Both the position numbers and the translations under genes were made by a program. Below the pieces are notes generated by a model, which worked only from the letters and a program-made list of their open reading frames with translations, was not told where the DNA came from and made no database searches. Below are positions 2,454 through 6,468 of a stretch of DNA of 8,206 nucleotides, piece by piece (within the stretch, counting starts at the first letter, position 1; each line of letters starts with the position of its first letter). This DNA is from a virus (lineage: Duplodnaviria > Heunggongvirae > Uroviricota > Caudoviricetes). The DNA lies in IMG/VR virus record IMGVR_UViG_2690316131_000020; one strand, given 5' to 3'.

Positions 2454-2657
2454 TCCCCACTACTCCCCACTTTTGCTCCCCACTTTTTGAAATTACCCAC
2501 CGTCTCCCCACCTCTTTTTTTTGTGATTCTAACGTTATGTTTTTCAATATGTTTTTTACTCCCCACTTTTTTGGGTATATACAGGTGGGAAAGTGGGTAA
2601 TTATGTTTCAATTTTGTTAAATTCCCCACTCCCCCCACTTTTACTCCCCACTTTTTA
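2453..2657. repeat. Iteron array flanking an AT-rich stretch: candidate replication origin of the element
   Basis: About 9 direct copies of (T)CCCCAC(TTTT) (cores at 2455, 2465, 2477, 2495 degenerate, 2507, 2561, 2624, 2633, 2646) plus inverted copies at 2584-2597 (GGTGGGAAAGTGGG). They flank an AT-rich segment at about 2513-2557 that includes a T8 run. The array starts at the 3' end of the replication initiator gene, as in SaPI/PICI-type origins. Confidence 0.6.
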
Positions 2658-4055
2658 CAGCGGGCGCACGTCATCACCGTCAATAACGATTACGCCATCA
2701 TTTTCCAGCTTGTACAGCCAGCGCCGGAAGTGCTTCATCTCATACCCCAGCTTTTTCATATCGTCGCGGAGAAGGGCGATAGTGCACGCCTCCCCGTGTG
2801 CTGTTCGTGTTCTGATGCACTGCCATAGCGCGGCGTGATTCTCCGTCTTGTTCCCTGCCTCCTCGATGCGCTCCAGTTCAACGGGAGGGCGCGGCTTATC
2901 CACCACCACCAGCGACGTGATTAACTCCCCGTCAGCGTCGGTAAAAAGCTCCACCACGCGTAAGTCATATGCTGCTTCTTTGAGTTCCTCCGCGTCCTTC
3001 ATTTTGGTACATGAGATAACCAGCGCTTCGCTGCCTGCGTCCTCCCTGCGTATCCGGTATTCGGCGTCCAGTGATGCACGAAATGCACTGGAACCACGCG
3101 CCCCCTTTGTTTCATCCTTGCCGGAATGGTGAACCACCAGCACCGTTGCCCCTGTGCGCCGTTTCAGTTCGTCACACCCACGGATAAACGCCCCCATATC
3201 ACGGGAATCATTTTCATCATTGCCGCCAAAGCAGCGCGCCAGCGTATCCAGAATAATCATTCGAACCGGTTTACCCGTTTCCCGTTCCACCTGACGGGCA
3301 GCGATAACCATTTCCTCAACATCAAGCGGGGCAGCCGGAAAGATGGGACGGTTTACCAGATACAGATTTTTCACCTGCTCATCGTGCACAACCTCCCAGG
3401 CTTTTACACGACGCGGAACACCTATACCGCCTTCACCAACCACATAGAGAACCGCACCATGTGCAACCCTGCTGCCTCCCCACTGGCGACCAGTGGCAAC
3501 ATGGCACGCCCACGATCCGGCAAGGAATGATTTATAGGACCCGCTAGCCCCGTATATGCTGCATAGCGATACCGCCGGAATAATCCCCTTAACCACGTAA
3601 TCCAGTTGCGTGTCGTATCCGGTAGATCCAACGCTCATCGGTAGCGTGGTTTTTCGCTGGTGGTTTTTTTCTTCCGCCGGCTCTTTCCCGCGCACCCGTT
3701 CCAGGTATTCGCGCCAGTTCTCCCGCATATGGCTGTGCATCCCTTCGGGGTAATAATTCGCATCAGTTACACCCGCCGCCGCCAGCTTGTGCGCAATGGC
3801 ATTAATATTTGATGGCCTGATGTGGCCTGCCTTGTACAGCCGGACACAATAGCGCCCCTCGTCGATGATTCTCAGGTCTGCCAGTTCATCCAGTTGATCA
3901 TCAGCCAGCACAACGGGAGGCACATTATCGCCAGCCAGTCGCCCGTCCTGTTCCTGCCACTGTTTCGCATGTGCCCAGGCATCACTACCCGCAAAAATAA
4001 TGACTTCGGTCATCTTGTCGTAAGGCTGTTTTTTTAAGTTCGGTGCGCTTTTCAT
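2655..4055 (-). CDS. Replication initiator / helicase-like protein (466 aa): RecA-fold RepA-type (AAA_25-like) ATPase core, N-terminal domain of uncertain type, C-terminal winged-helix-like tail
   Basis: Walker A GASGSYKS, Walker B-like RMIILDTLARCF, and VLVVHHSGKD typical of RepA / DnaB-like loader ATPases. ATG at 4053-4055 with AGGGG SD (6 nt spacer). ATGA overlap with the upstream 99 aa ORF. The iteron origin follows immediately downstream. Confidence 0.85.
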   Translation of the reverse strand: MKSAPNLKKQPYDKMTEVIIFAGSDAWAHAKQWQEQDGRLAGDNVPPVVLADDQLDELADLRIIDEGRYCVRLYKAGHIRPSNINAIAHKLAAAGVTDANYYPEGMHSHMRENWREYLERVRGKEPAEEKNHQRKTTLPMSVGSTGYDTQLDYVVKGIIPAVSLCSIYGASGSYKSFLAGSWACHVATGRQWGGSRVAHGAVLYVVGEGGIGVPRRVKAWEVVHDEQVKNLYLVNRPIFPAAPLDVEEMVIAARQVERETGKPVRMIILDTLARCFGGNDENDSRDMGAFIRGCDELKRRTGATVLVVHHSGKDETKGARGSSAFRASLDAEYRIRREDAGSEALVISCTKMKDAEELKEAAYDLRVVELFTDADGELITSLVVVDKPRPPVELERIEEAGNKTENHAALWQCIRTRTAHGEACTIALLRDDMKKLGYEMKHFRRWLYKLENDGVIVIDGDDVRPL

Positions 4056-4592: not shown

Positions 4593-4814
4593 TTAATCCC
4601 CGTCCGTTGTTTTTCTTAAAACAGCTTCTGTCACGAAATCAGCATAGTTAGCGGCAATATCAAGAATATTTAGCCCTGTACCTCTGTGCTCATCAGTGCA
4701 AAGAAAGAAAAAAGCCACCCGCATAATTTCAGATATTGACGAAAGCGCATCAGCCGCATCATCAGGAACGCCGGAAAATTCTTGTTTCAGGGAATTAAAA
4801 CGATCATCACGCAT
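4593..4814 (-). CDS. Small hypothetical protein (73 aa, MRDDRFNSLKQEF...)
   Basis: ATG at 4812-4814 overlapping the stop of the upstream ORF (ATGCGTGA), with a G-rich SD-like run upstream. The track ORF was trimmed to this start. Confidence 0.45.
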   Translation of the reverse strand: MRDDRFNSLKQEFSGVPDDAADALSSISEIMRVAFFFLCTDEHRGTGLNILDIAANYADFVTEAVLRKTTDGD

Positions 4815-5028
4815 AACCCCCCCCATTTTCACAATCAGCAACAAGAATATTTTTAGCGTCATTCAGCGACCGCGTTGCGATGTATCGGATACATTCCAGG
4901 GCGAACGTTGTCCGGTCTTTCTGTTCTTCTCCCTGCGCAAGCTCTGCCGTGCATTCAATATCAATAAGCGCGTGCATCAGCGTAGTGAGCGCGGCGGCGG
5001 CTGCGTCCGGTGTGGTTTTATTGCACAT
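4807..5028 (-). CDS. Small hypothetical protein (73 aa, MCNKTTPDAAAAALTTLMHALIDIECTAELAQ...)
   Basis: ATG at 5026-5028 with a strong SD (AGGAGG, 6 nt spacer). Overlaps the 3' end of the upstream small ORF by 11 nt. Confidence 0.5.
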   Translation of the reverse strand: MCNKTTPDAAAAALTTLMHALIDIECTAELAQGEEQKDRTTFALECIRYIATRSLNDAKNILVADCENGGGYA

Positions 5029-5209
5029 GGCACACCTCCTGACGAATACGGGCGGCGAATACAGCAACACAACCGGACGGGCAACGGCTACGTGCTTCGC
5101 GTTCCGTCCAGGCGGTTACGTGGATGATTTGATGTTCTGACGCGCCAAAGATGATAAAGCGCCAGAGAAAGGCGGTTTGAGAATGTACAAGGGTAGGGAT
5201 AGTAGCCAT
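5018..5209 (-). CDS. Small protein, copy A of a tandem paralogous pair (63 aa, MATIPTLVHSQTAFLWRFIIFGASEHQIIHVTAWTE...)
   Basis: ATG at 5207-5209 with a strong SD (AGGAGG, 8 nt spacer). The N-terminal 15-20 codons are paralogous to the ORF starting at 5578, with differences mostly at third codon positions. It is the 3' part of the long 409-codon track ORF. Confidence 0.55.
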   Translation of the reverse strand: MATIPTLVHSQTAFLWRFIIFGASEHQIIHVTAWTEREARSRCPSGCVAVFAARIRQEVCHVQ

Positions 5210-5369
5210 GTTGGCAGCCTCCTCAGTGTGGTTAAGATAACCGCCACCGGAAACGCCAATTTCGCTGGTGGCGGACTGTACAGGGTTGGCGTAACCGGAC
5301 ACTGAAGAAACCGGCGCGGATTGCTCCGCCCCCGTACAGCCCACCATTGATAAGGTGTGACTATGCGGC

Positions 5370-5395
5370 ACAAAAAAACACGCGGGGCGCGTGTT
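5370..5395 (-). terminator. Intrinsic terminator-like hairpin plus U7 (minus strand), inside the stop-free frame between copies B and A
   Basis: On the minus strand: stem ACACGCG / CGCGUGU with loop CCC, followed by 7 U (the complement of the plus-strand A7 at 5372-5378). Confidence 0.4.
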
Positions 5396-5578
5396 ATGCG
5401 CTTCAGTTTTGCCCAGGACGCCAATCCCGGCACCCGTTTTATGAGGTGCGCGGGAATCATAGCTATTTTCGACACTGGCGATCAACTGGTTTTTTTCTCC
5501 GATATTCAGGGCCAGAAAACGCCACACAAAGGCCGTTTGTGTGTGTACAAGGTGTGGTATATGATTTACGGCAACCAT
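5396..5578 (-). other. Copy B of the tandem paralogous leader ORF (MVAVNHIPHLVHTQTAFVWRFLALNIGEKNQLIASVEN...); no in-frame stop before copy A
   Basis: ATG at 5576-5578 with AGGAG SD (5 nt spacer). Paralogous to copy A. The frame stays open through a terminator-like hairpin into copy A, so its real 3' end and coding status are unresolved. Confidence 0.3.
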
Positions 5579-5666
5579 AACGGCTCCTAGTTTACGTTGT
5601 TGGTTAGACGCCCCGTATGTGTTCCCAGCACTGCGGGGCGTTGATTTTTGTGTAATGGCAAGTACA

Positions 5667-5711
5667 ATGGTAATTACCATGTAGGTATAGTAATGAAGGG
5701 TAATTACCATG
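5667..5711. promoter_or_regulatory. Two palindromic operator-like sites in the divergent control region: ATGGTAATTACCAT (5667-5680, perfect 14 bp palindrome) and AGGGTAATTACCAT (5697-5710), with a -10-like TATAGT at 5686-5691
   Basis: The perfect palindrome is repeated 30 bp downstream, where it overlaps the start codon of the Arc-like gene. An AAGGG SD lies 8 nt before that ATG. The sites sit between the plus-strand RHH gene and the minus-strand leader ORFs. Confidence 0.5.
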
Positions 5712-5882
5712 TCAACACCATTAGAAAAACGTTCGCCTCCATACCAAATGCGATTACCGGAAGACTTCAGAGCGCAGCTAGAAGAAGCAGCTAAGGCCGA
5801 TGGCGACACATCTTTAGCCACTTGGATTAAACGCGTTCTCCGCAAAGAATTACAGCAACGCGGCATAGAACCCAAAGGATAA
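5709..5882 (+). CDS. Arc/MetJ-type ribbon-helix-helix DNA-binding protein (57 aa), candidate repressor
   Basis: Below the ORF-track cutoff; found by manual translation: MSTPLEKRSPPYQMRLPEDFRAQLEEAAKADGDTSLATWIKRVLRKELQQRGIEPKG. The RLPE-D/E-L...EAA...G-x-T/S...I...L pattern is typical of Arc-like RHH domains. An in-frame stop lies just upstream at 5694, and the palindromic operators overlap its promoter and start. Confidence 0.7.
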   Translation: MSTPLEKRSPPYQMRLPEDFRAQLEEAAKADGDTSLATWIKRVLRKELQQRGIEPKG

Positions 5883-5924
5883 AAACTATCAGCGCCGTGG
5901 TGTGAGGTATTACGGCGCATTGCT

Positions 5925-6113
5925 ATGCAGGACAACACAATGACCGATAAAGAATTGACCAAAACATTATCACCGGCACGGAAAAGACGGCGCAGAAAGA
6001 TAGAGCATGAATCAGAAAGATTCGCGCCATGTGCTTTTGCCCTTGAGCAATTCCTTAAAGAGTACAGGGAAAAGCGCTCATTGCAGGTATGGCAACGAAC
6101 TGAACCAGACTGA
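5925..6113 (+). CDS. Hypothetical small basic protein (62 aa); weak call
   Basis: ATG ORF downstream of the Arc-like gene and upstream of the terminator at 6209-6235, but with no convincing SD. The antisense frame is part of the rejected 409-codon ORF. Confidence 0.25.
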   Translation: MQDNTMTDKELTKTLSPARKRRRRKIEHESERFAPCAFALEQFLKEYREKRSLQVWQRTEPD

Positions 6114-6208
6114 TTGCATTGCCCACCAGCCTGATAGCGGCTATCATCCCCGTGCTTATGTTTGGGATCACATACACATAAGGCGCAGCGGGTTAATTGT
6201 TCAGAAAG

Positions 6209-6235
6209 GCGGCTCCATATCGGGGCCGCTTTTTT
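6209..6235. terminator. Intrinsic terminator, probably bidirectional, between the convergent plus-strand RHH operon and minus-strand alpA
   Basis: Stem GCGGCUCC / GGGGCCGC (8 bp with one G-U pair), loop AUAUC, then T6 on the plus strand. On the minus strand the same hairpin is followed by CUUUCU. It lies about 30 nt downstream of the alpA stop. Confidence 0.6.
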
Positions 6236-6261
6236 CGTGTTTGTCATATCTGTGATACCCG

Positions 6262-6468
6262 TTAAGCAGCCGTTCCGCGTGCTTCCTCTTCGCGTTCTTT
6301 CTGCCAGGACAACACATCATCCTCATACCATCCGCGACGGCGTAAACCAACGCGAAAACCCTGCGGAAATTCTCCGGCGTTGATCATGCTTTGCAGCGTG
6401 CTGTCTGCCTTGATGTGGATAATTTTTTTTACTTCCTGGCGAAAGATAATTTTTCTGATTGCTTCCAT
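6262..6468 (-). CDS. alpA: AlpA-family phage transcriptional regulator / excisionase-like HTH protein (68 aa)
   Basis: Motif ...FRQEVKKIIHIKADSTLQSMINAGEFPQGFRVGLRRRGWYEDDVLSWQ matches the AlpA family signature (G-K/E-FP...R..GW.E.D...W). ATG at 6466-6468 with AAGGT SD. Positioned two genes from a P4-type integrase. Confidence 0.85.
   Translation of the reverse strand: MEAIRKIIFRQEVKKIIHIKADSTLQSMINAGEFPQGFRVGLRRRGWYEDDVLSWQKEREEEARGTAA

Follow-up and report, generated by a model that had tools for sequence, protein, structure and literature searches.

A P4/P1-type RNA immunity module with a duplicated icd head in an Escherichia coli phage-inducible chromosomal island

Introduction

Satellite P4, phages P1 and P7 and Salmonella Gifsy-1 carry the closest described counterparts of the locus analysed here, the region 5018–5715 of an 8,206-nucleotide (nt) stretch of viral DNA (IMG/VR record IMGVR_UViG_2690316131_000020; the whole stretch is hereafter called the window), in which two small homologous open reading frames (ORFs), copy A and copy B, share one stop-free frame of the minus strand. 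In P4, the Kil protein is a truncated form made from transcripts of the promoter PLE, full-length Eta is made only from an upstream promoter, and translation of Eta prevents termination, so that transcripts of the upstream promoter read through (PMC10111431, summarising Forti et al. 1999). According to the same source, the Rfam models RF01695 and RF01394 detect relatives of the P4 CI and seqA RNAs, and C4 and isrK matches occur inside the Phage_ASH ('Bro network') genes of several Gram-negative phage-inducible islands. In Gifsy-1, orf45, which lies 3′ of isrK, is translated and needed for the expression of the next gene, and its nucleotides but not its amino acids are conserved (PMC4825925).

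The window is a Gram-negative phage-inducible chromosomal island (PICI), a P4-like satellite. Its segment 4900–5800 (901 bases) is 99.3% identical to an island beside tRNA-Pro in Escherichia coli E2865, the genes of which include an integrase, a helix-turn-helix (HTH) regulator, a RepA-type helicase, a small terminase subunit and a capsid gene. The region 5018–5715 is an RNA immunity module of the P4/P1 type, and what a sequence-only reading had described as two paralogous small ORFs is a complete Icd/Kil toxin gene (copy A) together with a 28-codon leftover of a second copy (copy B). The locus adds one more instance of a regulatory module that is already known; it does not represent a new gene type. 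We consider it probable that the whole explanation holds, namely that the RNA immunity module is combined with an eta-like bypass ORF headed by copy B.

Results

Identity of the module parts

An Rfam scan of the window (gathering scores of 45 bits for RF01695 and 50 bits for RF01394) returned two full-length matches on the minus strand, on which all features described below lie unless stated otherwise. The first is an IsrK-like leader RNA at 5373–5449 (RF01394, 66.0 bits), corresponding to the P4 seqA or P1 a1-b1 target and ending in an intrinsic terminator (stem 5394–5378, U-run to 5372). The second is an antisense immunity RNA of the C4/CI type at 5264–5351 (RF01695, 77.6 bits, model positions 1–87). 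The c4-a1b1 Rfam model reached only 21 bits on the window, which is under its threshold. Copy A, at 5018–5209, encodes 63 amino acids (aa) followed by a stop codon and matches NCBIfam model NF033153 (phage_ICD_like) with 57.1 bits against a cut-off of 25; by this profile match, it is a complete icd/kil gene of the Icd/Kil-like toxin family. The region of copy B, searched alone with the same model, gave no match. Copy A has its counterparts in Kil of P4 (65 aa, MATTLTPSHPEFVFVF...) and in Icd of the P1 type (MATIPTPTHPEFIWRF...), and AlphaFold predicts for the kil domain a strand-strand-helix-strand arrangement at approximately residues 133–180 of the 186-aa ORF described below, with a predicted local distance difference test score (pLDDT) of 65–80. 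The identity of these module parts is secure.

The hairpin followed by U7 and the second hairpin to which the sequence-only reading had drawn attention are both present (5394–5372 and 5274–5241) and can now be assigned. The former is the 3′ end of the IsrK-like RNA. The latter (stem 5274–5267/5248–5241) overlaps the 3′ end of C4 and consists of the 3′ strand of the C4 stem paired with a downstream segment, with AUUGGCG in its loop.

Both loops of C4, CUUCAGUG (5308–5301) and CGCCAA (5291–5286), are complementary to sites on either side of it. CGCCAA can pair with UUGGCG at both targets, that is, within AUUGGCG at 5426–5420, located in the second hairpin of IsrK, and within AUUGGCG at 5260–5254. 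CUUCAGUG is complementary to ACUGAAG (5407–5401), the other element of the upstream target in IsrK, and to CACUGAGG(AGG), the latter overlapping the Shine–Dalgarno (SD) sequence of kil. The downstream target, equivalent to P1 a2/b2 and P4 seqC, thus occupies 5218–5260 and is composed of AUUGGCG and of CACUGAGGAGG (5228–5218), which includes the kil SD. The predicted 11-bp C4 duplex, derived by hand and including G–U pairs, would span GAGGAGG. RNAduplex, applied to the entire RNAs, produced uninterpretable structures with long interior loops, and the pairing described here is a direct reading of short segments. Among 44 distinct C4 variants, the number of complementary 6-mers shared between the C4 loops and both flanks was 4.1 for cognate and 1.2 for non-cognate combinations, which is the specificity covariation to be expected of a C4 system. 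No C4-complementary site was found in the translation start region of copy B. The 46-nt direct repeat described below was also considered as a pair of C4 targets and rejected, the C4-complementary sites being located elsewhere (5426–5401 and 5260–5218).

A predicted promoter, P_int (TTGATC-18-TATGAT, 5456–5485), matches 9 of 12 positions of the sigma-70 consensus and has its 3′ end 7 nt ahead of position 1 of the IsrK model. Located within the eta-like ORF, it is directly 5′ of the leader, where a constitutive promoter would be placed. Despite sequence divergence, a sigma-70-like promoter with 7–10 of 12 matches occupies the identical register in 18 of 18 loci, comprising the window, P4 and all 16 E. 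coli loci surveyed below. The P4 promoter in this position is PLE, of which P_int would be the analogue.

Copy B and cassette-less siblings

The two translation starts and the homology of the peptides that follow them were confirmed. Copy B starts at ATG 5578–5576, preceded by the SD AGGAG (5588–5584) with a 5-nt spacer, and copy A at ATG 5209–5207, preceded by GAGGAGG (5224–5218) with an 8-nt spacer; the peptides begin with IPHLVHTQTAFVWRF and IPTLVHSQTAFLWRF, respectively. A repeat search revealed a direct repeat of 46 nt (5156–5201 and 5516–5561) offset by 360 nt, with 35 of 46 positions (76%) identical, a number of matches above that found in all 100 shuffles of the 1.4-kb region (shuffle maximum 29). 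At the protein level, copy B and copy A share 20 of 42 residues (BLASTP E = 7e-10). The hand count in the sequence-only reading, with 7 of 11 differences over 45 nt falling on third codon positions, proved exact on recount (3, 1 and 7 differences at positions 1, 2 and 3). As a sign of coding selection on the minus strand, this excess is valid for the repeat, because both copies descend from a real gene; it does not prove that copy B is translated at present.

The origin of copy B was clarified by its relatives. A search of IMG/VR with the 186-aa ORF returned two classes, one resembling the window and one with a single icd gene (MVAVNHIPHLVHTQTAFVWRFLALSAGESQIIHVTAWTEREAR...), the latter including an E. 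coli O157:H7 island (L002) and a Shigella island (L004). No match to C4 or IsrK was found within 2.5 kb in the single-icd siblings. The DNA of these siblings (L034, L041, L002 and others) is near-identical to that of the window from the repressor and operator region through the SD, the ATG and the first 28 codons of copy B, and their icd gene consists of the copy B head followed by copy A from codon 26 onward. The start codon assigned to the sibling icd by the annotation pipeline PGAP is the ATG homologous to 5578. Compared with the siblings, the window contains an additional 360 nt, or 120 codons (approximately 5494–5135), in frame and with the junction in register with the repeat. Copy B (28 codons, MVAVNHIPHLVHTQTAFVWRFLALNIGE; 5495–5588 including its SD), with which the 186-aa ORF starts, is therefore, as judged from this alignment, the 5′ fragment of an icd allele with a translation start that works in the siblings, and the repeat is the vestige of a duplicated icd on either side of the RNA cassette, i.e., the IsrK–C4 block. 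The comparison with the siblings shows that copy B was left upstream of the cassette by in-register recombination between icd copies. The degenerate duplication, one of three possibilities raised by the sequence-only reading, is thereby supported, with copy B as a fragment of an allele that is intact where the cassette is missing. Either the window arose by insertion or the siblings arose by deletion, and the comparison fits both directions.

In other relatives, the upstream icd fragment is 44 codons long (...EATSEQEARQ), or there are three Icd-like modules, and the same KNQLIA segment, which encodes the −35 box, follows in each case. An extension of the homology between copies B and A over 42 residues, the extent of the BLASTP match, was rejected: the icd-derived part ends at codon 28, and KNQLIA...YDS corresponds to the cassette promoter region. 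Locus L022 contains (3130–3434) a second C4 (74 bits) and then a second Icd-like gene, approximately 300 nt downstream of kil. Tandem C4–icd units were also detected with tblastn in L009, L015–L018, L020, L031, L074 and L080, with no second IsrK at threshold. Recombination among C4–icd units appears to be recurrent, and the cassette inside icd, present in some relatives and absent from others and bordered by icd heads that have diverged, illustrates on a small scale but clearly how satellite immunity evolves by modules. A terminator-like hairpin at 5543–5523 within copy B has no conserved equivalent in copy A, and in the siblings its position is part of the icd coding sequence; it is treated as incidental.

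These comparisons also bear on the proposal that copy B is a leader peptide controlling the terminator at 5394–5372 by classical attenuation. Such a role is suggested by an intrinsic terminator preceded by what looks like the start of a short ORF with a good SD. However, no short ORF ends in or before the terminator: the frame of copy B continues over 186 codons with no stop before the terminator, and it contains no regulatory codon run. In addition, the terminator belongs to IsrK, a separate transcription unit with its own position-locked promoter and a predicted start at about 5449, 3′ of copy B, and in the siblings an ordinary icd gene with no terminator begins at this same start. The leader-peptide attenuator was rejected as scarcely credible.

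The 186-aa ORF evolves as RNA outside kil

From ATG 5578, the frame runs with no stop into copy A, as had been noticed before, and forms an eta-like read-through ORF of 186 aa (5018–5578) composed of the copy B fragment, the translated promoter, IsrK and C4 DNA, and kil. Database entries annotate such ORFs as 'Ash' or 'Icd-like'. An ORF of this layout could be taken for a genuine multi-domain 'Ash/Bro-network' protein in which the internal repeat is structural, and several observations favour this: Pfam Phage_ASH (PF10554) matches with 63.3 bits against a gathering score of 26, PHROG 29966 spans the entire ORF, 775 database ORFs have the same layout, and PGAP uses the name 'ash family'. The Pfam match, however, covers residues 40–133, which is exactly the IsrK–C4 DNA.

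The substitution pattern was analysed in a codon alignment of 35 distinct in-frame relatives. They came from a second IMG/VR scan, which retained the best in-frame tblastn matches, is biased to open frames and was used for the covariation and codon analyses only. The ratio of third-position to first- and second-position variability is 1.10 in the IsrK segment, 0.83 in the linker and 0.99 in C4, with synonymous shares of differing codon pairs of 12%, 11% and 14%, respectively. The kil segment, i.e., copy A, has a third-position excess (ratio 1.45) and a synonymous share of 31%. AlphaFold, supplied with a 47-sequence alignment, assigned pLDDT values below 50 to residues 1–128, predicting disorder. 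In six of the 16 E. coli loci surveyed below, the same DNA has stops in this frame, and the apparent 'residues' co-vary as RNA pairing partners would. PF10554 thus shows neither the substitutions nor the fold of an evolving protein domain. Since there is no third-position excess and pLDDT is below 50, the 'Ash' part evolves as RNA and not as protein. The suggestion of the sequence-only reading that the 186 aa form one protein with an internal repeat stands for the ORF as such, which is a counterpart of P4 eta with kil nested in it, and fails for a folded repeat protein.

The same stop-free frame can be followed upstream to position 6247, giving 409 aa (6247–5018), and this longer version has also been considered as the putative protein. 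Over this distance, the other two minus-strand frames contain 20 and 10 stops (5579–6247) and 8 and 3 stops (5210–5578). The 5′ part of the 409-aa frame (669 nt, 5579–6247) is antisense to an Arc/RHH-type repressor gene and to a second plus-strand ORF (ORF62). The frame begins 15 nt after the stop codon of the alpA-type gene, a position reminiscent of P4, and has no SD, and the 186-aa ORF begins 684 nt downstream of that stop codon with its own SD. Among 25 related alleles with detectable alpA, only about 5–7 are open back to alpA. In favour of the long protein, the chance that these 669 nt are stop-free is approximately 6e-4, given the plus-strand protein sequences and the intergenic composition. 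The sequence-only reading had dismissed the 409-aa ORF as not credible, which is probably right, with the chance value keeping the matter from being settled; judged from the sequence, translation of its 5′ part is unlikely. A genuine protein of 186 or 409 aa is, overall, very unlikely.

There is a practical consequence for annotation. Proteins annotated as 'Ash family' (PF10554), like many of the long 'Icd-like' ones, are translated IsrK and C4 RNA genes, and the real protein product is only the Icd/Kil domain of about 63 aa. Two further frames were noted over the same DNA. An ATG in the 5′ strand of the C4 stem (5347–5345, SMVGC...) is the start of a 108-aa 'ash family protein' (P0089) found on 98 contigs. 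A second minus-strand frame (5116–5475, 119 aa) is open from 5475 over the 3′ part of IsrK, C4 and the start of kil, and a frameshift variant in the database, protein P0095 (153 aa), enters it within C4.

Conservation of the open frame among E. coli cassettes

IsrK–C4 cassettes were found at 6,112 places in 2,971 of the 5,426 complete E. coli genomes. PGAP labels the cassette DNA as 'ash family protein', 'Rha family phage regulatory protein' or 'Icd-like', or leaves it unannotated, and no RNA feature annotation at the cassette is listed under the E. coli matches looked at. A profile scan of genome contigs with the Icd alignment yielded one locus only; IMG/VR contigs and E. coli genomes were used instead. 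For the survey of the reading frame, 16 E. coli loci were picked by DNA similarity alone, all with both RNAs above the Rfam thresholds. In nine loci, the frame stays open over both RNAs and is fused with the gene that follows, either Icd-like (including a P1-like plasmid) or of the Rha/KilA-N type. It is open yet out of frame with icd in one, and interrupted in six, which represent intergenic lambdoid contexts with Ant, ORF6N, BRO-N, P22AR or hypothetical targets.

The distances from the start of IsrK to the start of C4 in the open-frame group are 98, 101, 140 and 185 nt, which are equal modulo 3; in the intergenic group they are 97, 99, 100, 101 and 102 nt. The phase of these insertions and deletions suggests a constraint on the frame in the open group.

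Two of the loci encountered have additional features. An E. coli prophage (L170) contains two complete IsrK–C4 cassettes (901–1090 and 1558–1746) approximately 650 nt apart, each contained in, or preceding, an ORF labelled 'ash' or 'Rha family'. In L180, near-threshold matches to DicF (42.6 against 48 bits) and STnc100 (42.1 against 47) were obtained at 621–820, just upstream of an IsrK–C4–Rha cassette, in a prophage region that carries ydaF and a ydaE-family gene.

Upstream region and neighbouring genes

Upstream of copy B, a promoter, P_up (TTGACA-17-TACTAT, 5687–5715), is predicted with 10 of 12 matches to the sigma-70 consensus. It is identical in the cassette-less siblings, where it is the sole candidate promoter seen upstream of the single icd, and it would correspond to an upstream promoter that is insensitive to immunity, like PLL of P4. 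The palindrome ATGGTAATTACCAT occurs twice at 5665–5712; both copies are putative operators of the RHH protein, and they overlap P_up and the start codon of the repressor gene; the arms of the inverted repeat (5667–5678 and 5699–5710) are 100% complementary. The repressor gene itself, of the Arc/RHH type (YlcI/YnfO-like), is located on the plus strand at 5709–5882, divergent from the icd operon. It was identified with PHROG 228 (Arc-like, E = 1.5e-6) and NCBIfam YlcI_YnfO_N (E = 0.0014), and PGAP places a YlcI/YnfO gene at the same position in L168. The leader ahead of copy B contains a stem-loop (5609–5640; CGCCCCG...CGGGGCG) with a 7-bp stem and an 18-nt loop, which is kept in most cassette-bearing and cassette-less relatives and has a 5′ arm resembling the IsrK terminator sequence.

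Further upstream of the entire module lies an alpA/vis-type excisionase-regulator gene (6262–6468, 68 aa). Its weak match to Pfam Phage_AlpA falls short of the cut-off (E = 0.0028, 17.9 bits against 21), and the identical gene of E. coli E2865 is annotated by PGAP as an HTH regulator. On the plus strand, a terminator hairpin with a 14-bp stem followed by TTTTTT (6203–6235) ends the RHH–ORF62 operon, which converges on alpA. Read on the minus strand, the stem is followed by CTTTCT, which is no good T-run, and minus-strand transcripts of alpA may read through it.

Downstream of kil, the next gene of the operon encodes 73 aa (4807–5040 including the SD AGGAGG at 5040–5035; PHROG 5146, E = 1.6e-12). 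Its start overlaps the end of kil, the kil stop lying just downstream of ATG 5028, and this overlap suggests translational coupling into the replication operon. A helicase gene occupies 2655–4055.

Discussion

Proposed regulation

By homology with P1 C4 and P4 CI, the C4 RNA of the window would pair with both of its targets, block the translation of kil and promote premature termination, and the downstream replication operon would as a result be silent. P_up is probably repressed by the RHH protein. Since no C4 target is present at the copy B start and 95 stop-free codons connect it in frame to kil, transcripts from P_up would be translated from ATG 5578 through P_int, IsrK, the terminator and C4 into kil. 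Translated transcripts of this kind may escape C4-dependent termination and polarity, which would constitute a bypass of immunity. The amino-acid sequence of the traversed part would be irrelevant, and the open frame alone would matter. We infer these steps, and with them the bypass function of translation from ATG 5578, by homology with P4 eta (available passages of PMC10111431) and Gifsy-1 orf45 (PMC4825925).

A number of points weigh against this explanation. Stops occur in six of the 16 cassettes, where the RNAs keep full Rfam scores, indicating that the RNAs work untranslated; these interrupted loci hold just one or two stops in this phase, and conservation of the RNA sequence may account for much of the openness of the frame. 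The argument from indel phase draws on only three or four independent events, and in L167, which belongs to the open-frame group, the distance is 102 nt. That the window differs from the siblings by 360 nt in frame is an automatic outcome of in-register recombination and is in itself no evidence of selection. Both promoters, the role of the RHH protein and the use of ATG 5578 in this island are inferred. Because P4 eta has no kil-like N-terminus (a kil-like piece proposed in it, QIMVWCVVSRADGIP against FVFAAVRRADRHP, was rejected at BLASTP E = 14), the duplicated head is not a general feature of eta-like ORFs, and it may be an accident of this lineage.

Most of these points are at home in a rival account, in which copy B is a dead remnant of the icd duplication, translated by accident at most and with no regulatory role, and the openness of the frame over IsrK and C4 is an inherited state that results solely from a chance lack of stops in this phase of the conserved RNA sequences. 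The full-score RNAs and scarce stops of the six interrupted loci, the RNA-encoding part with no selection at the amino-acid level and the in-register origin of the junction all agree with it, as does the absence of the duplicated head from P4 and most other cassette contexts. Yet the SD and ATG of copy B are those of the working sibling icd, with the same promoter upstream, and initiation there is hard to avoid. Likewise, indels in the open group are multiples of three, whereas those in the intergenic group are of 1–2 nt, and P4 eta (available passages of PMC10111431) and Gifsy-1 orf45 (PMC4825925) provide experimental precedents. We regard a dead remnant as rather unlikely and prefer translation from copy B through the module into kil.

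A broader view is possible, if speculative: IsrK–C4 may be a portable block that resides in icd-type genes and is gained or lost by in-register recombination, with selection in satellites for a frame that ribosomes can traverse and with the duplicated head as a dedicated bypass start. The siblings with and without the cassette and the tandem C4–icd units, as in L022, are the support for this view. If it is true, one stretch of DNA would serve as a promoter, two regulatory RNAs and a translated spacer of irrelevant sequence. The locus is in any case a worked example of a P4-type RNA immunity switch in an E. coli phage-inducible island, with its parts placed to the nucleotide, and the induction logic proposed here, with an RHH-controlled promoter, an internal constitutive promoter and C4, is directly testable.

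Comparison with known systems

In the order of its parts, the module resembles P4 (X51522). The same two Rfam matches occur there in the same order (IsrK-like at 8615–8692 and C4/CI at 8420–8507), and the kil frame is open upstream through the CI RNA and the IsrK-like leader to a triple ATG at the end of vis, forming eta (197–199 aa, 8767–8168). In both, an alpA/vis homologue lies upstream, a promoter is located within the long ORF, a seqA leader with its terminator is followed by the C4/CI RNA, a target covers the SD, and a Kil/Icd of 63–65 aa ends an ORF of 186–199 aa that starts upstream of the internal promoter. The two differ in the head of that ORF: eta begins at the stop codon of vis and lacks a kil-like head, whereas the window ORF starts with a duplicated icd 5′ fragment and its own SD. 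Unlike P4, the window has the RHH repressor operon and operators between alpA and the start of the ORF, and the IsrK-like and C4/CI starts are 98 nt apart, compared with 185 nt in P4.

In the immI locus of P1 and P7 (c4–icd–ant), as in the window, the two C4 loops are complementary to upstream a1/b1 and downstream a2/b2 sequences, and the latter cover the ribosome-binding site of icd. The P1-type Icd beginning with MATIPTPTHPEFIWRF (locus L167) belongs to the same family as copy A. The gene after icd is the antirepressor ant in P1 and the satellite replication operon in the window, and the P1-like plasmid locus showed no duplication of the icd head.

The isrK–orf45–anrP region of Salmonella Gifsy-1 resembles the window in that IsrK has a leaky terminator and the read-through RNA is translated across a C4-like region (PMC4825925). 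It differs in that orf45 is a separate ORF of 45 codons in an intergenic lambdoid context, coupled to the antirepressor, and in that a short IsrK is described as a trans activator (PMC4825925). In our mapping, the start of orf45 corresponds to ATG 5347 of the window, in the 5′ stem of C4 and in the same phase; the window ATG lies within a longer ORF, which extends into icd.

The duplicated icd head, the polymorphism of the cassette in icd and an Ash part with no protein-level selection are not described in the available passages of PMC10111431. With the layout of PICI given in those passages, comprising integration, 'Bro', replication and late zones, the window agrees. What it adds to the systems compared here is modestly new: a duplicated head, a presence/absence polymorphism of the cassette and the recognition of Phage_ASH as translated RNA.

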